A DNA stretch of 64,000 nucleotides, from NCBI GenBank assembly GCA_902780455.1, contig CACZFO010000002.1, forward strand, positions 23,493 through 87,492, read 5' to 3'. Shown here piece after piece: positions 23,293-41,233 of the stretch. Made by a program: the position numbers and the translations under genes. The DNA comes from an uncultured Bacteroidia bacterium. Its GTDB lineage: Bacteria; Bacteroidota; Bacteroidia; Bacteroidales; UBA932. The notes under the pieces are model-generated. The model ran no database searches. It was given only the letters and a program-made list of their open reading frames with translations, and had not been told where the DNA came from. Positions within the stretch are counted from its first letter, which is position 1. The number at the start of each line of letters is the position of its first letter.

Positions 23293-23301
23293 TTATCTTT
23301 C

Positions 23302-23333
23302 TTTGTAGCAAAAGAGTTTTTTTCCTATATTTG
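23302..23333 (+). promoter_or_regulatory. Consensus Bacteroides promoter for micro-ORF 1 / lipoprotein 1
   Basis: -33 TTTG (23302-23305) and -7 TATATTTG (23326-23333) with a 20-nt spacer. It matches the published TTTG / TAnnTTTG consensus. Confidence 0.65.
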
Positions 23334-23417
23334 TAACAGTTGAATTACTCCCTCCCTTATAGAGAGGGAAAATGTGTTGAAAATTAACAAAATTAACAAA
23401 TTACAGCCTTACTACAT

Positions 23418-23546
23418 ATGAAAAACAAGAAATTATATCTTGCTCCTGAATGTGAGTTTCAGGAGCTGGAACCGGAAAACAGCCTGCTTACGGGCAGCAC
23501 TACGGAAGGCATCGAGATACCCGTCAGTGATGAAGAAGATTTCTAA
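23418..23546 (+). CDS. Micro-ORF 1, 42 aa, acidic: MKNKKLYLAPECEFQELEPENSLLTGSTTEGIEIPVSDEEDF
   Basis: Hand-translated. It ends 7 nt before the lipoprotein ORF. It shares a fixed framework with three other micro-ORFs in the same relative position. Confidence 0.6.
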   Translation: MKNKKLYLAPECEFQELEPENSLLTGSTTEGIEIPVSDEEDF

Positions 23547-23553
23547 CCTTTAA

Positions 23554-24453
23554 ATGCGCACAAAAATGAAACTTACAAGATTATTTCTCGGAATTTGCTG
23601 CGCAGCCGCAGCTCTGGCAGCCTGCAGCAAGGCAGAAAAAGTAACCAAAGAGGCTCCAACCCGTCCGATGACCATCACCCTCAGCACAGATGAGCCTTCT
23701 ACAAAAATCTCTGTCGATTACAACGGCACAAACAAGTACACCCACAAATGGCAGACCGGAGACGCCCTCTCTGTTCTTATCGTTGTAGATGGAACTGGAT
23801 ACAACGACAAATTCGAGCTCGTTTCAGGAGCCGGAACCAACACCGGTGTATTCTCCTGTGCAACCAGCCACATACCTGCTTTAGGAAATATTGATGTAAC
23901 CTACATTTATCCTTATACCACGGAAAAAGATGGTGATAGCTGGTGGAAAAGAAGCATTGAAAACCAGGGGAACGGAAGCCTGGCCAATCTCGGCAAATAT
24001 GATATGCTCGCTGCTCGAGCAGCATATACTGATGGTGTTTACTCTTATTATATGTCAGGAGGAACCCCGGATTTTCAAGTGTTTTTCTTAAAACTTCCGG
24101 CAGGACTTCAGCTGGTAGGCAACTCCACCGGCAACCATTCGGTAGATATCGAATTGAGCGGCACAGGCGCTACCGATATTAACATCGATTTTCTCAACCA
24201 TATAAACCTTAAGACTGCGACTACAAATACAGGAACCATCAAGCTTACGAGTGTGGCCCTTTCAGATGGCAAACTCGTTTCAGATACATATATTGCGTGC
24301 GGTACTAACTATGGTTCAGACCGGACTTTTTCCCTGTCAGTTAAGGAAGGTTCTTCAAGCGTAAGATATGACCTTACCCATCCAGGGAGGTTATATGTAG
24401 GGAATGTGTACAAGCTTTCCCAGACCCATTTCTCTCCGGTAAAGAACTTTTAG
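23554..24453 (+). CDS. Fimbrillin/Mfa-like surface lipoprotein 1
   Basis: 299 aa with lipobox signal MKLTRLFLGICCAAAALAAC (alternative start 23566). It carries the motifs W-x-x-G-D-A-L-S and IYPY shared with the three downstream paralogues. Confidence 0.7.
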   Translation: MRTKMKLTRLFLGICCAAAALAACSKAEKVTKEAPTRPMTITLSTDEPSTKISVDYNGTNKYTHKWQTGDALSVLIVVDGTGYNDKFELVSGAGTNTGVFSCATSHIPALGNIDVTYIYPYTTEKDGDSWWKRSIENQGNGSLANLGKYDMLAARAAYTDGVYSYYMSGGTPDFQVFFLKLPAGLQLVGNSTGNHSVDIELSGTGATDINIDFLNHINLKTATTNTGTIKLTSVALSDGKLVSDTYIACGTNYGSDRTFSLSVKEGSSSVRYDLTHPGRLYVGNVYKLSQTHFSPVKNF

Positions 24454-24514
24454 TTAATCTCAACGTTTGCCGGGAAAGATACATCGCTGAGCCTTGGCAA
24501 AACTATAATACATG

Positions 24515-24541
24515 ATCCGGCTGTACCCCAGCCGGATTTTT
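24515..24541 (+). terminator. Rho-independent terminator after lipoprotein 1
   Basis: 9-bp stem atccggctg/cagccggat, a 5-nt loop and a T5 run. Confidence 0.8.
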
Positions 24542-24568
24542 GTTCCCCAGGATTTTTTTATATCTTTG
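24539..24568 (+). promoter_or_regulatory. Consensus Bacteroides promoter for micro-ORF 2 / lipoprotein 2
   Basis: -33 TTTG (24539-24542) and -7 TATCTTTG (24561-24568) with an 18-nt spacer. Confidence 0.6.
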
Positions 24569-24643
24569 TAAGCAAGGAATTCTCTCCTCTTTATAGAGGG
24601 GGGGGAATGCATTGAAAATCAACAAATTATAGCCTCATAAATT

Positions 24644-24778
24644 ATGAAAGACAAACTTCCTTACAAAGCTCCGGTATGCGAAGAAGACATTCTTGAGCCG
24701 GAAAACAGCCTGCTGGCAGCCAGTCCGCTGGACATCAATTATGACCTCCCTGATCCCGATGATGAAAAAGATTTCTAA
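24644..24778 (+). CDS. Micro-ORF 2, 44 aa, acidic: MKDKLPYKAPVCEEDILEPENSLLAASPLDINYDLPDPDDEKDF
   Basis: Hand-translated. It ends 6 nt before the lipoprotein ORF. It is a paralogue of micro-ORF 1 (shared LEPENSLL and a C-terminal DF). Confidence 0.6.
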   Translation: MKDKLPYKAPVCEEDILEPENSLLAASPLDINYDLPDPDDEKDF

Positions 24779-24784
24779 CCTTAA

Positions 24785-25687
24785 ATGCGCGCAACCATGA
24801 AACTCACAAGATTTTTAGTCGGTATCTGCTGCGCAGCGGCAGTGCTTACCTCCTGCAGCAAGGATGAGAACGTAAAAGTTGAAGAAACCTCTCCTGTAAC
24901 CATAACCATCAGCACTGATGACCTGGCTACCAAGACCGTCATCGGACGCGATGACGAATCCGGGAAATACACCCACACCTGGAAAGACGGCGATGCCTTG
25001 AGCTGCATCATAGCACACAGTAGTACAGAGTATTATATGGACAAGTTCGTACTGGTTTCCGGAGCCGGAACCAAGACAGGAACCTTCTCCTGCTCCAACA
25101 GCCATGTCAAGGCAGAGGGATATACTTATCCTGTAATAATCTATCCTTACTCGGATGAAGAAGCCGGCGGCTGGTATAACTGGTCCTGGGAAAACCAGGA
25201 AGGTGGAAGCCTGGAAAACCTGTCAAAATATATTGTACTTTATGCCAGGGCCACCTTCCAAGACAAGGTTTTCAAAGGATGGAACGAAAAGCCAGTATTC
25301 GTTTCTGATTCATATTTCCTGAAATTCCCTCAAGGCTTGCAGATTGTAGGCAACGCTCCAGGAAACCACACTGTAGATTTGACCTTCAGTGCATCAGGAA
25401 GTTCCACTGTAAAAAACCGCCAACAATATGCAAAAAATTATTATTCGGGTACTTCTGTTGACGGAAGCATAAAACTTACAGGCGTGGCTCTGACAGACGG
25501 TAAACTTGCAAAAGACACTTATATGTATGTCAGGGCAAGCCGTGAACCAGGCTCCACTTTCACACTTGAAGTAAAAGAAGGCACAAACTCTGTAAGCTAC
25601 ACCTTGACAAGTGGTTCCAGCCACAAGAGCACAGGAGGTGTATACAAACTTAACCAGAGCAACTTCACTCCGATCCTGGATTTCTAG
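24785..25687 (+). CDS. Fimbrillin/Mfa-like surface lipoprotein 2 (paralogue of lipoprotein 1)
   Basis: 300 aa with lipobox MKLTRFLVGICCAAAVLTSC (alternative start 24797). It is collinear with lipoprotein 1 at roughly half identity by eye. Confidence 0.7.
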   Translation: MRATMKLTRFLVGICCAAAVLTSCSKDENVKVEETSPVTITISTDDLATKTVIGRDDESGKYTHTWKDGDALSCIIAHSSTEYYMDKFVLVSGAGTKTGTFSCSNSHVKAEGYTYPVIIYPYSDEEAGGWYNWSWENQEGGSLENLSKYIVLYARATFQDKVFKGWNEKPVFVSDSYFLKFPQGLQIVGNAPGNHTVDLTFSASGSSTVKNRQQYAKNYYSGTSVDGSIKLTGVALTDGKLAKDTYMYVRASREPGSTFTLEVKEGTNSVSYTLTSGSSHKSTGGVYKLNQSNFTPILDF

Positions 25688-25743
25688 AAGAAACTCTGGA
25701 GTGGCGTTTATTATCAGTTATAATCGCCTATCACAAATATGTT

Positions 25744-25772
25744 ACGGCAGGACAGTCTCCTGCCGTTTTTTT
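25744..25772 (+). terminator. Rho-independent terminator after lipoprotein 2
   Basis: 9-bp stem acggcagga/tcctgccgt, a 5-nt loop and a T7 run. Confidence 0.8.
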
Positions 25773-25858
25773 GTTTATCGTGATAGAAAACACCCCTATT
25801 CTAGGTTCATTATAGTTCATAATCTATTCTCTCCCTGGAATTATAAAAATTCTTAATA

Positions 25859-25894
25859 AATAATTGCAATTATTGATTATTCTTAATAATTTTG
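25859..25894 (+). promoter_or_regulatory. Candidate promoter (-7 TAATTTTG, 25887-25894) with a perfect 16-bp palindrome AATAATTGCAATTATT (25859-25874) over the -33 region
   Basis: The palindrome was verified by reverse-complementing. It is flanked by the direct repeat ATTCTTAATAA. The region is AT-rich, so chance occurrence is not negligible. Confidence 0.4.
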
Positions 25895-25919
25895 CGCGAA
25901 TTTGCATAATTAGGGTCAT

Positions 25920-26057
25920 ATGAATATGAAAATTAACTATCTGAGCCCTCGGATTACGGTTATAGGAGTAACCATGACCAAAGGAATCCTGACTGTATCC
26001 GGCGGCGATTATGAACATCCGGAACCAGGAGACCCAATAGGTTCCGACGAAGACTGA
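25920..26057 (+). CDS. Micro-ORF 3, 45 aa: MNMKINYLSPRITVIGVTMTKGILTVSGGDYEHPEPGDPIGSDED
   Basis: Hand-translated. It ends 15 nt before lipoprotein 3. It has the same Y-x-x-P ... IL-x-x-S framework and an acidic tail. Confidence 0.5.
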   Translation: MNMKINYLSPRITVIGVTMTKGILTVSGGDYEHPEPGDPIGSDED

Positions 26058-26072
26058 CAGGAGGATGGTATC

Positions 26073-27773
26073 ATGAAAAGATTATTCAGAGTTCTGAGTT
26101 ACGCCACCCTCGTGGCATTGGTGTTTTCCTGCAGCAGCAAGGAGGACGGACTGTTCGTTCCTGCCCAGAAGGATAACACAATCATTACCGTTTCGGCCTC
26201 TGTAGAGAGTTCTCCAACCAAGACTACCCTGCAGGACGACCTTTCGATTATCTGGAATGCTGAAGATGCCATTTCACTCCTGGCTTCCGGTGTAAACTAT
26301 GAGTTCAAGACAAGCTCTGCAAAACTGAAGGACGGCGGTCTGAGGGCTAATTTCGACCATGAAGGCGAAATCCCTCAGCAGAGTTACTACGCCATTTATC
26401 CATTCAACAGCGGCGCACTCCTCAACGGAAGCGTTATAACTACCCAACTCCCTGCCATCCAGACGGCCGCAGCAAACTCCTTCGGTCCCGGTGCCAACCT
26501 GGCCGTTGCATACGCAGACTGGGGTCAGCCGTTCAAGTTCAGGAATGCTGCTGCCATGATCAAGGTCAGCTTCAAGACCACCGATGCCGATGCTGCCATC
26601 AAGTCCATAACTTTCCGCAGCCTCAATAGCAGCATCCTGCTTTCAGGAACCGTACAGCTGACACCTACCGTTGAAGACGGAGTGGTTACCAATGTGGCTA
26701 TGACCGTTACAAGCGGCCAGCCTTACGTTACCCTCCAGGCTCCTGACGGACAGTATCTCCAGCCAAATACAGAGTATTACATCACTGCTGCTCCTGCTGC
26801 CCTTACCTCTGGCTACCGCATTGAATTCGAGACCGCAGACGGCCTGACCTTCGGCAGGTATTACAGCGATGCAACCTACAAATCTGCAGTTCTCAGTCGC
26901 AATACAATCTCTGCTACCGGAAAGAAGAACCTGGACAATTTTGAAATCACAGGATACTTCCGTGTCCGCTACGCTGAGACCAACAACCACCCTGGCATAG
27001 GTGAATACCTTGTCGTGTACAAGATGCCGGACGGCAGCTACCGCATCCTCAATGAAGATAAGACCGATACCTATATCGTAAAGGGAACTCATTTTGCCCT
27101 AAGTGGTTCACAAATGATTAATGTTTTAAGCCAAACTTTAACTGATGTTGGAAAACAAGAGTTGGAAAGAATGGTTGCTTTTGTGTTCAGAAACGCATGG
27201 CTTTCTTCTTCAAACTCTGACGATAACATTTCCTTTGCAGACGATGAACTTATAACTTCTACTTCTCCTATCGGCATTTCGGTAAACAGATACAGGTATA
27301 ACTCAAAATACTATTACTTTGCAAATGTTGTTTTATACAACCGTACTGACAACACCAATATTACTCTTACACTTGACAATCTGACTTGTAAGCTGAATTC
27401 TTCAGATTCCGGAACTGTAGATGGATTATTCAATACAAACACTTCTAGTGTGAATCCACAGGGTAATCCTAACTCCTGCTCTGATCTGGTAAATGCGCTG
27501 ATGATGCATGCAACCTTTTCAGTTCCAATATTCGGAGACCAAACGGCTACTGTTAAGAAGGGAGCTACGGATGCATTGAAAAAGGACAATGCTTTTTCCG
27601 GTGCATTCACTACTGCTTCTCACAATACTCTTGAAGGAAAACCTACTTACGAGGTTTACAAGGATCATTTCATGATCAGAACTAACGACCTATTGAGCGG
27701 CGCTTCCCTTTCCGATATCTGGATTTATAAACATGGAACTAAGAATTACGCATATTATATAAACAATAAATAA
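26073..27773 (+). CDS. Large surface lipoprotein 3: fimbrillin-like N-terminal half plus a C-terminal region of unknown function
   Basis: 566 aa with lipobox LVALVFSCSS. N-terminal motifs are IIWNAEDAIS, YYAIYPF, LPAIQ and NLAVAY. Confidence 0.7.
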   Translation: MKRLFRVLSYATLVALVFSCSSKEDGLFVPAQKDNTIITVSASVESSPTKTTLQDDLSIIWNAEDAISLLASGVNYEFKTSSAKLKDGGLRANFDHEGEIPQQSYYAIYPFNSGALLNGSVITTQLPAIQTAAANSFGPGANLAVAYADWGQPFKFRNAAAMIKVSFKTTDADAAIKSITFRSLNSSILLSGTVQLTPTVEDGVVTNVAMTVTSGQPYVTLQAPDGQYLQPNTEYYITAAPAALTSGYRIEFETADGLTFGRYYSDATYKSAVLSRNTISATGKKNLDNFEITGYFRVRYAETNNHPGIGEYLVVYKMPDGSYRILNEDKTDTYIVKGTHFALSGSQMINVLSQTLTDVGKQELERMVAFVFRNAWLSSSNSDDNISFADDELITSTSPIGISVNRYRYNSKYYYFANVVLYNRTDNTNITLTLDNLTCKLNSSDSGTVDGLFNTNTSSVNPQGNPNSCSDLVNALMMHATFSVPIFGDQTATVKKGATDALKKDNAFSGAFTTASHNTLEGKPTYEVYKDHFMIRTNDLLSGASLSDIWIYKHGTKNYAYYINNK

Positions 27774-27783
27774 TTATCAGTCT

Positions 27784-27909
27784 ATGAAAACAATTAAGGA
27801 AACTTATGAGAAACCATACTCAAAAAGCATTGAATATGAGTTTCAAGGCATTGTATGCGCCACAAACCTGGAACCTATTGACGACGAAGGAGAAATTCCT
27901 TTGGACTAG
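27784..27909 (+). CDS. Micro-ORF 4, 41 aa: MKTIKETYEKPYSKSIEYEFQGIVCATNLEPIDDEGEIPLD
   Basis: Hand-translated. It starts 10 nt after the lipoprotein 3 stop and ends 36 nt before lipoprotein 4. It has the same framework and an acidic tail. Confidence 0.5.
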   Translation: MKTIKETYEKPYSKSIEYEFQGIVCATNLEPIDDEGEIPLD

Positions 27910-27945
27910 AGGCATTTTATAGTTTAACTTTTTAAACCTGCGATT

Positions 27946-29871
27946 ATGAAAAAGTTATTGTTAGTTCTGGCTTCAGCATTGATGCTCTTTGCCTGCAGCA
28001 AGGAAGATGTTGCTCCGGAAATGGCTAAGGGTTCTGAAGGAAAGGTTTTCCACGCATCTTTTGAAGGCACCACAGATCCTGAAACTAAAGTTTATGCAGA
28101 TGAACAGCTTCGCCTCAGATGGGATTCAGAAGATTTGATAACTATCTTTGAAAGGAATACCGCTAATTCAAAGTACAAAATAAAGACCCTTTCACCCAAC
28201 GGAAATGCTTGCGATTTTACTTCAGTAGAATCCTCACAAGCAGGTGCTACTCTTCCTAACTTCTATGCCGTTTATCCTTATGCTGAAAACACATCCATAA
28301 GCGCTTCTGATCCATACAAGATTGAAGTTCTCCTTCCTAATGCTCAGGAATATAGAGAAAATTCCTTCGGAATTGGCGCTAACACCATGGTGGCTGTTGC
28401 CGATGATGATGATCTGATGTTCAAGAATGTATGCGGTTATCTCAGATTCCGTTTCTACGGAGAGGGTGTGAAAGTCAGCGGAGTTACATTGGAAGGAAAC
28501 AATGGTGAAAAACTGGCGGGAAGTGCCCTGATTACTCCAGGTGAGAATCCAACAGTAGAGATGGTTGAGTCCAGCGCCCAGAACAGTGTAGAATTAATTT
28601 GCGAACCAGCCGTTGAATTGGGTAGCGTCAGCACAGATTCCACCGTGTTCATTTTTGCTATACCTCCTACAACATTCTCAAAGGGTTTCAAGGTAATTGT
28701 CAGGAGTGAGGACGATAAAGTCTTCGAGAGGGTTATTACTTCAAAGAGTATTACAATAGACCGCAATAAGCTTAAGAGTATTCCTACCCTCAAAGTTGAG
28801 CTTACCGATCCTAATTATCAGTTAGTTAAGAATAATATTGATATCACAGATGGAGATTATGTACTTGCTTATCACAACGGAGAAGGTTTCAATCTCTTCA
28901 GCTTCACCAAGACTATGGCCAATGCTGAAACCGCAGCAAACAATGTCAAGGACGTTCACGGTCTGAGTGCCCTGCTCAGCAAGGGGTCACAGATCTATGC
29001 AACTGTTGTAGGAAAGAACTACGTAACCGTTGAAGGAAATGCCGGTGCTGATTTTATCAATATAACTGATGAAGTTGAAGCTGAAGCCAAGCTTTCCGTT
29101 ACTGGAACAGCTGACGAAGCTAACTTGACTCTTTCTAGCGGCAGCTACAGTCTCCGCCTCGACAAGGTTATAACCAACATCAACGACGACTACTCAGCAA
29201 CCCTTTCCGTTCAGCCGAATGCCCCGGATGCTCTCAACATCATGTATTCTCTCCGTGGCGGCAAGGTTGTCATCACATTCAACGAGTTGATCAACTTTGC
29301 GGTAGACCAGGCAAAGAAGGAAGGCGTTACCTTTACCCCTGAGCAGATTGCCCGCCTTCGCAGCGGCTTCTTGAAACTCTGCAAGCTTGCCAAGGAAGAG
29401 CTGGCTGAGCACAACATGGGTAACCTTATGGACATCGATCTGAATACCAATGTATTTGATGTCATTGCACAGTACTATGACAATGCTGCATCATATTCAC
29501 TTCAGATTGCTCCTGAGAAGAAGTTCGGTTGGGCAACCCCTATCGGATTCTACAAGGGTGATGACGGATTCACTGCTAACATAGCTCTGCCTCAGGCAGG
29601 ATGGTTCGACCGCGTTGCAGAATCTCTCACCAAGAATAACAGAGCAGATTTCGTTGCTTATTGGGCCCAGTATGACAGCCAGTACCATATCCTTGATATC
29701 TCAAACTTCTTCCAGAGGCTTGCCGGCAAATTCTATGATGAATTGGACCCTAGTACATATGCTCTCCTTCAGCAGGTAGACTTCAGGGCTATCGGAAGAG
29801 TTTATGGCAGATATGTCAACCGCTTCAACGACAAGCTCGAGAAGGTTTACCTCTACAAGAAGATTAAATAG
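27946..29871 (+). CDS. Large surface lipoprotein 4: fimbrillin-like N-terminal half plus a C-terminal region of unknown function
   Basis: 641 aa with lipobox LMLFACSK. N-terminal motifs are LRWDSEDLIT, FYAVYPY, LPNAQ and NTMVAVA. Confidence 0.7.
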   Translation: MKKLLLVLASALMLFACSKEDVAPEMAKGSEGKVFHASFEGTTDPETKVYADEQLRLRWDSEDLITIFERNTANSKYKIKTLSPNGNACDFTSVESSQAGATLPNFYAVYPYAENTSISASDPYKIEVLLPNAQEYRENSFGIGANTMVAVADDDDLMFKNVCGYLRFRFYGEGVKVSGVTLEGNNGEKLAGSALITPGENPTVEMVESSAQNSVELICEPAVELGSVSTDSTVFIFAIPPTTFSKGFKVIVRSEDDKVFERVITSKSITIDRNKLKSIPTLKVELTDPNYQLVKNNIDITDGDYVLAYHNGEGFNLFSFTKTMANAETAANNVKDVHGLSALLSKGSQIYATVVGKNYVTVEGNAGADFINITDEVEAEAKLSVTGTADEANLTLSSGSYSLRLDKVITNINDDYSATLSVQPNAPDALNIMYSLRGGKVVITFNELINFAVDQAKKEGVTFTPEQIARLRSGFLKLCKLAKEELAEHNMGNLMDIDLNTNVFDVIAQYYDNAASYSLQIAPEKKFGWATPIGFYKGDDGFTANIALPQAGWFDRVAESLTKNNRADFVAYWAQYDSQYHILDISNFFQRLAGKFYDELDPSTYALLQQVDFRAIGRVYGRYVNRFNDKLEKVYLYKKIK

Positions 29872-29920
29872 TAAAAGTTTTATACAGCTATTACTGAAAA
29901 ATAGCGTTGTTGTTTTTTAG

Positions 29921-29956
29921 AGACTGCCGGTCCGTTTGGGCTGGCAGTCTTGTTTT
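29921..29956 (+). terminator. Rho-independent terminator after lipoprotein 4
   Basis: A stem of about 13 bp (agactgccggtcc / gggctggcagtct, including G-U pairs), a tetraloop, then tgtttt. Confidence 0.7.
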
Positions 29957-30029
29957 ATGAGGGCCATCGGTTTTGCATATTATCATTTTTTGGAGTAACT
30001 TTACTCGGTTAAATTTTTGAATTCAAATT

Positions 30030-40449: not shown

Positions 40450-40644
40450 ATGAGCAAAATAGGTAACTACATCAAGGAGTCTTACAGAGAGTTGACCAAG
40501 AAAGTTTCCTGGCCAACCTGGGCGCAGCTTCAGAGCAGTGCAGCTGTAGTGATGGTGGCAACATTCATCTTTGCAGTGCTTGTATTCGTGATGGACTTTG
40601 CGTTCAAGAATCTGATGACCGGAATCTACAGTTTACTCAGATAA
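40450..40644 (+). CDS. secE: Preprotein translocase subunit SecE
   Basis: 64 aa with a single C-terminal TM segment. It occupies the conserved position before nusG. Confidence 0.9.
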   Translation: MSKIGNYIKESYRELTKKVSWPTWAQLQSSAAVVMVATFIFAVLVFVMDFAFKNLMTGIYSLLR

Positions 40645-40666
40645 AACTGTTTCAACAGACCAAGTT

Positions 40667-41233
40667 ATGAACGAGCAGAAACTTAGATGGTACATCGTAA
40701 GGGTGCAGGGCGGTAAGGAGAAGAAGGTTCAGGAATATCTCCAGAACGAAGTTCGCAGGGCCGGAAAGGAGGACATGGTTCCCCAGGTTCTGATTCCTAC
40801 CGAAAAGGTTTACCAGGTTAAGAATGGAAAGAGAGTGCTTGTCGAGAAGATATGCTACTCCCAGTACGTTTTCGTACAGGCCAATCTCACCGGTGAAATC
40901 CAGCACCTGATCTGCGATATTCCTTTCGTGTCAGGCTTCCTTACAAAGGAGTCTCCACGTTCAAAGGAAGCCAAGAGGAATCCCTACCCTCTGCCTGAGA
41001 ACGAGATCAACCAGATTCTCGGAAAGGTGGATGAGATGATAGACGTAGAGGATGAAGCTGCTCCTTCATTTGTGGTCGGAGAACCGGTAAAGGTCGTAGA
41101 CGGTCCTTTCAACGGCTTTAACGGAAACGTACTTGAAATCCTTGAGGACAAGAAGAAACTCAAGGTTGAAGTAAAGATTTTCGGAAGGCCTACAACGATG
41201 GAACTGAATTTTGTTCAAGTAATTAAAGAGTAA
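40667..41233 (+). CDS. nusG: Transcription termination/antitermination factor NusG
   Basis: 188 aa with an NGN domain (WYIVRVQGGKEKKV) and a KOW motif (GEPVKVVDGPFNGFNGNV). Confidence 0.95.
   Translation: MNEQKLRWYIVRVQGGKEKKVQEYLQNEVRRAGKEDMVPQVLIPTEKVYQVKNGKRVLVEKICYSQYVFVQANLTGEIQHLICDIPFVSGFLTKESPRSKEAKRNPYPLPENEINQILGKVDEMIDVEDEAAPSFVVGEPVKVVDGPFNGFNGNVLEILEDKKKLKVEVKIFGRPTTMELNFVQVIKE

Follow-up and report, generated by a model that had tools for sequence, protein, structure and literature searches.

What is encoded by the tiny open reading frames that precede each of four surface lipoprotein genes in an uncultured Bacteroidia bacterium, and do they belong to these genes or occur there by chance? 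The question was raised by a first-pass annotation of a 64,000-nucleotide stretch of DNA (the window; GCA_902780455.1, contig CACZFO010000002.1, positions 23,493 to 87,492), which described an island of four fimbrillin-like lipoprotein genes, each paired 1:1 with its own acidic micro-ORF, between the core genes aroE and ssb. This analysis confirmed that the arrangement is real. Four micro-ORFs, m1 at 23418-23546 (42 aa), m2 at 24644-24778 (44 aa), m3 at 25920-26057 (45 aa) and m4 at 27784-27909 (41 aa), precede the lipoprotein genes L1 at 23554-24453 (299 aa), L2 at 24785-25687 (300 aa), L3 at 26073-27773 (566 aa) and L4 at 27946-29871 (641 aa), all on the + strand and with gaps of 7, 6, 15 and 36 nt, respectively. 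L1 and L2 have a second in-frame ATG 12 nt further on, which is the start used by their orthologues, and Pfam marks on syntenic loci identify the flanking genes as aroE and ssb. L2 is 48% identical to L1, and cassette 2 is a tandem duplicate of cassette 1 with a period of about 1231 nt.

Strong terminator-like hairpins end cassettes 1, 2 and 3+4, while the promoters are supported only as matches to the Bacteroidetes -7 consensus TAnnTTTG. In cassette 1, a promoter-like box, TATATTTG, lies at 23326-23333 (+), the equivalent of which is conserved upstream of orthologous micro-ORFs, and is followed by a 5′ leader hairpin at 23348-23369 (+) with a CU-rich and a G-rich arm, for which RNAalifold on seven cassettes gave six pairs, three of them with compensatory changes; the cassette ends in a terminator-like hairpin with a T-run at 24514-24538 (+; 10-bp stem with 6 GC pairs). 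In cassette 2, the promoter-like box TATCTTTG lies at 24561-24568 (+), the leader hairpin at 24581-24606 (+), and the terminator-like hairpin at 25744-25766 (+). Cassettes 3 and 4 have one promoter-like box, TAATTTTG, at 25887-25894 (+), and end in one terminator-like hairpin at 29920-29951 (+; 14-bp stem with 8 GC pairs), and as only 10 nt separate L3 from m4, units 3 and 4 must be co-transcribed, as had been stated.

Are the micro-ORFs genes? Within the window, 7 of 49 ORFs of at least 150 aa have any ATG-initiated ORF of 35-65 aa within 40 nt upstream, of which four are the micro-ORFs and one is SecE; moreover, the four micro-ORFs share a motif and are conserved in orthologous loci with substitutions concentrated at third codon positions. 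Comparison of orthologues gave dN/dS values of 0.07-0.17, being 0.11-0.17 for m1 against those in three loci (L001, L005 and L006; sampled loci are denoted by L and three digits) and 0.065 for m3 against that in L001, all lower than the 0.44 of lipoprotein L1 itself. An orthologue of m2 precedes the L2-like gene in L004, and a peptide identical to m4 is seen on 33 contigs. Therefore, the possibility that they are untranslated chance ORFs in 5′ leaders, suggested by their shortness and by most sources not annotating them, is refuted at the level of sequence evolution by these dN/dS values, by a motif conserved across 49 distinct members in different genomic contexts, and by family profile HMM E-values of 1e-15 to 1e-21 in 461 kb of six-frame translation without off-target hits (m1, 2.8e-19; m2, 4e-18).

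The micro-ORFs constitute an unannotated family of 37-60 aa, as searches of Pfam, NCBIfam and PDB sequences returned no hit above threshold and every source names them "hypothetical protein". Each peptide has a short basic start, followed by a conserved N-terminal module, Y-x-x-P, then x3-V-x-E-V-K-S-E-G-[IV]-I-C-x-S (K or R at the Lys position family-wide), whose alternating pattern suggests a β-hairpin. A tail rich in Asp, Glu, Gly and Pro follows, which is conserved within orthologue groups, differs between lipoprotein subfamilies, and often ends in an aromatic residue. The m3 tail, GGDYExPEPGDPIGSDED, has one change at a dS of about 1.6, while m4 has the tail motif NLEPI..GE, and relatives with the same tail motif precede LRR lipoproteins in L015, L056, L058, L060 and L064; the [NQ]LE[PTN][PI]...GE(W) tail tracks the L4/LRR lipoprotein subfamily across loci. 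The peptides have no signal peptide or hydrophobic segment, with a maximum 15-residue Kyte-Doolittle hydrophobicity of 0.45-1.6 and a net charge of -4 to -9.5. Although m1 and m2 both have a pI of 4.05, not all family members are acidic.

Is the pairing specific, and to what kind of protein? All four lipoproteins have a signal peptide plus a lipobox Cys and share W-x-x-[GE]-D-x-[LI]-[ST] and [IV]YP[YF], and the first-pass recognition of them as fimbrillin-like is supported, although none reaches a Pfam or NCBIfam threshold. The AlphaFold2 model of L1 (pLDDT 82.5) has a two-domain, type V pilin (FimA/Mfa)-like fold, and its best Foldseek matches are Bacteroides fimbrial proteins and Porphyromonas gingivalis Mfa4 (3t2l, 3sy6 and 5dhm, the last being Mfa4) at probability 1.0; for the others, the predicted fold rests on hhalign. 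L3 and L4 share the module of about 275 aa (hhalign 97.4%), each comprising a pilin-like N-terminal module plus an uncharacterised C-terminal region, while the model of L4 itself is poor (pLDDT 52). Six family homologues carry PF13149 (Mfa_like_1). Far beyond this window, in dozens of rumen Bacteroidales loci, the pairing recurs: of 49 distinct family members recovered, 45 have an ORF of at least 150 aa within 150 nt downstream, with a median gap of 13 nt (range -1 to 61 nt), and 44 of those ORFs carry a lipobox-type signal, while one micro-ORF precedes a secreted protein that is not a lipoprotein (L027). Among lipobox ORFs, 40 of 51 lipoproteins of this family have the micro-ORF upstream, against 1 of 56 others (Fisher p = 4e-18). 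Sampling that started from the lipoprotein also found micro-ORFs, including in a MAG labelled Alistipes and upstream of a protein that meets PF13149. However, contrary to what had been claimed, the pairing is not strictly 1:1. In tandem operons often only the first gene has a micro-ORF, as an L4 orthologue in L001 lacks it and only the first of three tandem lipoproteins in L058 has one, and L011 has none.

What, then, could the peptides do? The first-pass interpretation as a whole is partly supported, in the fimbrillin-like nature of the lipoproteins and the recurrence of the pairing, while of the roles it listed, a chaperone-like cofactor and a regulatory leader peptide remain possible, but a strand-donating partner is disfavoured, since the peptides lack a signal peptide or hydrophobic segment, show no profile similarity to the lipoproteins, and matched no pilin chain in the PDB. 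What the analysis itself establishes, at the level of sequence evolution and structure prediction, is that the four micro-ORFs are translated genes of a previously unannotated small-protein family with the architecture given above, whose members form the first cistron of operons encoding surface-type lipoproteins with an N-terminal type V pilin-like module; any function is an inference from sequence and context. As the peptide has no signal peptide, as no third gene is conserved in 34 loci and no exporter or modifying enzyme nearby, and as it is made from the same mRNA a few nucleotides ahead of the lipoprotein, we tentatively propose that it acts inside the cell as a dedicated factor for production of the downstream adhesin or adhesins. 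In this view, the conserved N-terminal module would dock to a common cellular component, and the subfamily-specific tail would recognise the peptide's own pre-lipoprotein, or its expression apparatus, before Sec export, so that the peptide would be a private escort or holdase, or an autoregulator, and not a surface strand donor. A review states that the chaperones and accessory factors of type V fimbriae are unknown (PMC8512630). This proposal is our best guess but less likely than not, because there is no direct evidence of any physical or regulatory interaction, the peptide is evidently not needed one per protein, about 40 aa is small for a holdase, and a conserved 'leader' with a variable 'core' is equally typical of exported peptides.

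The latter alternative, an exported leader-core peptide, is the strongest rival, though doubtful. The conserved N-terminal part would be a leader recognised by a processing or export machine encoded elsewhere in the genome, and the variable tail would be released to act as a signal, as an antagonist, or as a trans-acting strand or cap for the groove of the neighbouring pilin-like lipoprotein. It is favoured by the bipartite architecture with its hypervariable 'core', by a YxxP motif in the leader with a weak, sub-threshold resemblance to paeninodin-type lasso leaders (NF033524, E 0.01-0.14), and by four loci that carry a divergent TPR + LuxR-type regulator next to the pair, which recalls peptide-sensing regulators. 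Moreover, the lipoproteins have the predicted pilin fold and a nearly invariant Thr-Lys after the first strand, so a groove could open after cleavage, the island has no stalk or anchor subunit, and C-terminal peptides are reported to block FimA and Mfa1 polymerisation (PMC8512630). Against it, besides the absence of a signal peptide and of similarity to the lipoproteins or PDB pilin chains, no transporter, peptidase, RRE or modifying enzyme is conserved in any of about 40 loci, no consistent cleavage motif, whether GG or Thr at -2, was found, and the tails are under purifying rather than diversifying selection among orthologues.

Similarly doubtful, and slightly less favoured, is a regulatory first cistron, whose translation, or whose small protein acting on the transcription or translation machinery, would set expression of the downstream adhesin operon, possibly including cross-talk among the many paralogous operons, as UpxY/UpxZ provide for Bacteroides capsule loci. 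The micro-ORF is the first cistron after a promoter-like box and a conserved 5′ hairpin, in tandem operons often only the first gene carries it, the gaps are short, and it persists intact where its lipoprotein has been deleted or has decayed (L004 and L028). However, strong amino-acid constraint runs along the whole peptide, including the tail, which is unlike simple uORFs; no terminator or significant RNA structure was found at the junction between micro-ORF and lipoprotein gene (z from 0.70 to -0.98), an Rfam search gave no matches, and no secretion-sensing segment of the kind seen in SecM, MifM or VemP is present. Finally, lasso-peptide or other RRE-dependent RiPP precursors, suggested by the length of about 40-50 aa, the Lys-rich start with YxxP, the acidic, Pro-rich tail like that of paeninodin and the weak NF033524 hit, are very unlikely and largely refuted, since only 2 of 32 members hit that profile, at 12-13 bits against a cut-off of 27, there is no conserved Thr at -2 and no consistent G/A/S/C at position 1 with D/E at positions 7-9, and no lasso cyclase, B protease or PqqD-like gene appears in any locus.

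Among known systems, the type V pilus (Fim/Mfa) gene clusters of P. gingivalis and gut Bacteroides share with the lipoproteins the lipobox signal, the predicted two-domain fold (best PDB matches BF1858, BF1861 and Mfa4), a first β-strand followed by a conserved basic residue at the position where Fim and Mfa pilins are cut, and, in relatives, variable C-terminal adhesin-type domains (LRR, Big, Fib_succ-like), as in tip subunits. However, the island lacks an anchor (FimB/Mfa2) or stalk subunit, its proteins fall below Pfam thresholds, and a conserved small first cistron is not part of any fim or mfa cluster described in PMC8512630 or found in our literature searches. The precursors of the paeninodin (PadeA) family resemble the peptides in length, in the Lys-rich start followed by YxxP and a strand-forming leader, and in the acidic, Pro-rich C-terminal part, but the profile score is below threshold, Thr at -2, a ring-forming register and B/C/RRE genes are absent, and the obligate neighbour here is a lipoprotein. 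Private secretion chaperones, for example class I type III secretion chaperones, are likewise small acidic cytoplasmic proteins encoded next to, and specific to, their own secreted substrate; however, they are about 130 aa and form dimers with a defined fold, while the micro-ORFs are about 40 aa, the substrate uses Sec and lipoprotein processing, and no interaction has been shown. The secretion-monitoring upstream ORFs SecM, MifM and VemP are also conserved small ORFs directly upstream of, and co-transcribed with, a gene for an envelope protein, and MifM also has an acidic C-terminal stretch, but they carry a signal or membrane segment and a C-terminal arrest motif and control a structured ribosome-binding region, while here there is no hydrophobic segment, the C-terminus is the variable part, and the junction is unstructured. 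Although the UpxY/UpxZ locus-first regulators of Bacteroides capsule loci have no sequence relationship to the family, UpxY being a NusG-like protein of about 170 aa, and no evidence of trans regulation exists here, in both cases paralogous small or medium genes sit at the 5′ end of each of many paralogous surface-structure operons, which is one conceivable route to coordinated or exclusive expression.

The ORF analysis of the island reproduced exactly what the first-pass annotation had described, namely four lipoprotein genes between aroE and ssb, each immediately preceded on the same strand by a small ORF, and the observation therefore holds. The micro-ORFs are located at 23418-23546 (m1, 42 aa), 24644-24778 (m2, 44 aa), 25920-26057 (m3, 45 aa) and 27784-27909 (m4, 41 aa), and the lipoprotein ORFs at 23554-24453 (L1, 299 aa), 24785-25687 (L2, 300 aa), 26073-27773 (L3, 566 aa) and 27946-29871 (L4, 641 aa), all on the + strand and with gaps of 7, 6, 15 and 36 nt. 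However, L1 and L2 have two in-frame ATGs (MRTKMKL...; 23554-23568 and 24785-24799), and most orthologues start at the second (MKLTR...), so that the real gap to the micro-ORF may be 18-19 nt and not 6-7 nt in these two cases. The flanking genes were assigned as aroE and ssb based on the Pfam marks of syntenic loci, and the island has a lower G+C content (0.38-0.47) than its flanks (0.48-0.54). As a background rate, 7 of 49 long ORFs in the window have any 35-65 aa ORF within 40 nt upstream, four of these being the micro-ORFs and one SecE; the latter is a 64-aa ORF with one membrane segment directly upstream of a 188-aa ORF (40450-41233), which looks like the usual secE-nusG pair and served as the one genuine control for a small ORF before a gene in the window. 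An HMM search found no further micro-ORF copies elsewhere in the 64-kb window.

The transcription signals fit the described arrangement of two complete cassettes and a third unit pair sharing one transcript. Strong terminator-like hairpins follow L1, L2 and L4, and L3 and m4 are only 10 nt apart, so units 3 and 4 share a transcript, whereas promoters are supported only as matches to the TAnnTTTG consensus. A small hairpin with a CU-rich arm and a G-rich arm sits a few bases after the promoter-like box in the 5′ leader of cassettes 1 and 2 (23348-23369 and 24581-24606) and is kept in relatives in the fetched loci L001, L004, L005, L007 and L008, with 3 of 6 pairs showing compensatory changes; it could be a stabilizer of the mRNA 5′-end or a regulatory element. 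Just upstream of the promoter-like box of cassette 3 lies an AT-rich palindrome, TAATAAATAATTGCAATTATTGATTA (25854-25879), which may be an operator site. Additionally, cassettes 1 and 2 (23293-25766) are a tandem duplication with a period of about 1231 nt, wherein the best-conserved block (92%) is the junction between micro-ORF stop and lipoprotein start (23528-23553 against 24760-24785). No flanking inverted repeats were found, which rules against an invertible promoter, and a search of the island against Rfam gave no match.

The micro-ORFs of this uncultured rumen Bacteroidales bacterium are real genes as judged from sequence evolution. Syntenic aroE-ssb islands in related MAGs carry one to three cassettes, and orthologous micro-ORFs are found upstream of the L1-, L2- and L3-like genes. 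The dN/dS is 0.11-0.17 for m1 against three orthologues and 0.065 for m3, compared with 0.44 for the L1 lipoprotein, and substitutions in the micro-ORFs concentrate at third codon positions. Therefore, the peptides are translated and more constrained than their neighbours. Readthrough of the stop codon or fusion with the downstream gene was considered, but although m2, m3 and m4 are in frame with their lipoproteins, m1 and the pairs in loci L005, L010 and L015 are not.

Protein searches seeded with the peptides, a metagenome scan with the pattern [EV]V[KR][SFV]EG[IVF]IC and inspection of genomic contexts together gave 49 distinct members of this family in 461 kb of fetched DNA, and m1-m4 match the family HMM at E = 3e-19 to 9e-17. 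The family (YxxP-SEGxIC small proteins) is defined here by a match to this HMM together with a position no more than about 60 nt upstream of a pilin-like lipoprotein gene, and m1-m4 fit both. The consensus consists of a short basic start, an invariant Y-x-x-P followed by x3-[VI]-x-E-V-[KR]-S-E-G-[IV]-I-C-x-S-[GP], and a tail of 12-30 residues rich in Asp, Glu, Gly, Pro and aromatic residues. The tail differs between subfamilies but is conserved among orthologues, as exemplified by the m3 tail, which shows one change at dS about 1.6. In m1-m3, which are divergent members, LEPENSLLTGS or TKGILTVSGG replaces EVKSEGIICxS (LEPENSLL[TA]xS in m1 and m2, and TKGILTVSGG in m3). By contrast, m4 is a typical member of a subfamily whose tail motif [NQ]LE[PTN][PI]...GE(W) recurs in front of L4-like and LRR lipoproteins in other genomes, one of those being a MAG labelled Alistipes. 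Searches of Pfam and NCBIfam with all eight island proteins, and then with 10 and 32 family peptides, gave nothing above threshold, a PDB sequence search with the peptide profile gave no meaningful hit, and every source calls the peptides "hypothetical protein" or does not name them.

The pairing is specific, but it is not strictly 1:1 as the first-pass annotation had it. Of the 49 micro-ORFs, 45 have an ORF of at least 150 aa starting -1 to 61 nt downstream (median 13 nt); 40 of those pass a lipobox pattern and 4 more have a looser one, while one, in locus L027, is a secreted beta-helix-like protein with an ordinary signal peptide. The rest are a deletion remnant, a decayed gene, a fragment and a contig end. 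In locus L004 (10001-10317, the same place as L009), an intact m4-like micro-ORF is followed by a 46-aa remnant in which the signal peptide and N-terminus of an L4-like lipoprotein are fused to its last 10 residues; the micro-ORF has therefore survived an internal deletion of its partner. Across 107 lipobox ORFs in 41 non-redundant loci, 40 of 51 lipoproteins that are BLAST-linked to L1-L4 by the N-terminal 320 residues have a micro-ORF, compared with 1 of 56 other lipoproteins (Fisher p = 4e-18). As the loci, almost all from rumen metagenomes, were fetched with one or other partner as bait, the absolute fractions are biased, but the contrast with other lipoproteins in the same loci is not. 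Most family lipoproteins without a micro-ORF are second or third genes of tandem operons whose first gene has one (loci L001, L027, L033 and L058), and locus L011 has none. Therefore, the micro-ORF behaves as a feature of the operon's 5′-end at least as much as a partner for each protein.

All four lipoproteins carry a Sec signal peptide with a lipobox Cys (M-x-K..[AS]C[SK]), C24 of L1 being invariant, and share the motifs W-x-x-[GE]-D-x-[LI]-[ST] and [IV]YP[YF]; the residues after the lipidated Cys (C-S-K-[ED]-[ED]) fit the Bacteroidetes surface-export signal. The L1 model, built from 63 aligned sequences, has a pLDDT of 82.5 and a pTM of 0.75 and is predicted to adopt the FimA/Mfa two-domain beta-sandwich fold, as its best PDB matches are Bacteroides fimbrial or adhesion proteins (3t2l, 3sy6, 4gpv) and Porphyromonas gingivalis Mfa4 (5dhm), at probability 0.97-1.0, E from 3e-5 and TM 0.29-0.44. 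L2 is 48% identical to L1, and the L3/L4 family aligns to the L1 family over about 275 residues (hhalign 97.4%, E = 9e-12), although L4's own model, with a pLDDT of only 52, is too poor to confirm the fold. The C-terminal 280-350 residues of L3 and L4 (26900-27773 and 28800-29871) match no Pfam, NCBIfam or PDB sequence. The profile of the four proteins finds 119 proteins, many of which add LRR, Big_2 or DUF1566-type C-terminal domains. In the L1 model, a first strand (residues 37-44) is followed by a low-confidence loop with the nearly invariant T50-K51, a position that agrees with Arg46 and Arg49 of FimA and Mfa1, where these are cleaved to open the donor-strand groove (PMC8512630).

Inspection of the surrounding genes showed that the lipoprotein is the only conserved neighbour of the micro-ORFs, and no transporter, protease, RRE or modifying enzyme recurs near them in the loci examined. 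In the MNKEKKLYEAP subgroup, a gene for a 465-483 aa TPR + GerE (LuxR-type) regulator lies divergently upstream of the micro-ORF/lipoprotein pair (L010 4259-5707, L018 2165-3613, L033 1-525 and L034 3444-4838). On the opposite strand just downstream of the pair in L010 (6958-10339) and L018 (4888-6431) lie a radical SAM/SPASM gene and a 139-aa secreted protein made of repeats (GKIESNGVIRDKYNSQV); the radical SAM/SPASM gene is next to this separate repeat protein and is absent elsewhere, and this is probably a separate peptide-modification system. Tyrosine-recombinase-like genes sit next to micro-ORF/lipoprotein pairs in L040 (6621-7532) and L054 (3125-4048), hinting that some of these adhesin loci may be subject to DNA rearrangement.

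Based on these findings, the earlier interpretation is only partly supported, in that the pilin-like assignment of the lipoproteins and the recurrent pairing stand whereas the strict one-to-one partnership does not. What the comparisons establish is the coding constraint on the micro-ORFs, the existence of the family and its specific position ahead of these lipoprotein genes; in contrast, what the peptide does, where it acts and what it binds, as well as any cleavage of the lipoproteins at the conserved Lys, are only inferred, and all evidence is comparative. The peptides have no signal peptide or hydrophobic segment and carry a net charge of -4 to -9.5. Taken together, we tentatively favour an intracellular role, wherein the family-wide N-terminal module would contact a common component, the subfamily-specific tail would contact the peptide's own pre-lipoprotein or its expression apparatus, and the peptide would support production of the downstream adhesin or adhesins.

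Two rivals remain serious, though each appears less likely. First, the micro-ORF could encode an exported leader-core peptide, which would include the strand-donor idea of the first-pass annotation; this fits the bipartite conservation and the solitary pilin fold, but no export route is visible, and the peptide as a mimic of the lipoprotein's first strand or donor strand was rejected, as hhalign of peptide against lipoprotein profiles gave a probability below 1% and the peptide profile resembles no PDB chain. Second, and slightly weaker, the micro-ORF could be a regulatory first cistron, which fits its position at the operon's 5′-end but does not explain the strong constraint on the whole peptide. 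The readings as lasso-peptide precursors and as chance ORFs are rejected. It also remains possible, although unlikely, that the peptides are a missing component of type V pilin-family biogenesis, each being specific to its own lipoprotein, exported by an unrecognised route and inserting into, or capping, the groove of a solitary pilin-like adhesin after its N-terminal strand is removed, or alternatively that each is a leader-core signalling peptide tied to that adhesin. Either case would be a peptide-assisted mode of surface-lipoprotein assembly or communication with no described counterpart.

Type V pilin-fold lipoproteins are among the most expanded surface-protein families of Bacteroidales and carry adhesin domains that shape attachment to host, feed and other microbes, while how they are kept export-competent, assembled or regulated is poorly known, and a review states that accessory factors such as chaperones remain unknown (PMC8512630). 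The strongly constrained, unannotated micro-protein family found here at the 5′-end of these genes is a concrete candidate for such a factor. It is also a marker that improves annotation of rumen genomes, where these genes are named "hypothetical" or are not called at all. Literature searches for a small ORF upstream of fimbrillin or lipoprotein genes found no description of this family or pairing in the searchable literature, and the human-microbiome small-protein survey does not mention fimbriae or adhesins.

In comparison with known systems, the paeninodin (PadeA) family of lasso-peptide precursors is echoed only by a sub-threshold hit to the leader part of its model NF033524, at 12-13 bits against a cut-off of 27, in 2 of 32 members and in none of m1-m4. 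YxxP is invariant, but no consistent Thr at -2 or ring register, with G/A/S/C at position 1 and D/E at positions 7-9, exists in the 32-member alignment, and no lasso cyclase, leader protease or RRE appears among the Pfam marks of any fetched locus. Compared with Sec- or lipoprotein-type secreted small proteins, the micro-ORFs lack a hydrophobic h-region, as the maximum 15-residue Kyte-Doolittle mean is 0.45-0.51 for m1, m2 and m4 and 1.62 for m3, with a GRAVY of -0.34 to -0.76, and the conserved Cys is preceded by Ile, which does not fit a lipobox. Compared with simple regulatory uORFs or attenuator leader peptides, the peptide sequence is constrained, with dN/dS of 0.07-0.17, and a structured junction that couples translation is not supported, as junction folding z-scores run from 0.70 to -0.98. 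Compared with the type V pilin/Mfa-like fimbrillin superfamily, L1-L4 give no Pfam or NCBIfam fimbrillin hit (PF13149 Mfa_like_1, PF06321 and similar) even at E <= 1, although six homologues found with the family profile do carry PF13149, and a PDB sequence search with the L3/L4 profile gave no meaningful hit. Nor does the island contain the anchor and stalk or accessory subunits of such clusters, as it holds only the four pairs between aroE and ssb. These loci resemble type V pilin-family adhesin operons, of which the lipoproteins are new and divergent members of a known superfamily, while the conserved micro-protein as first cistron is new.
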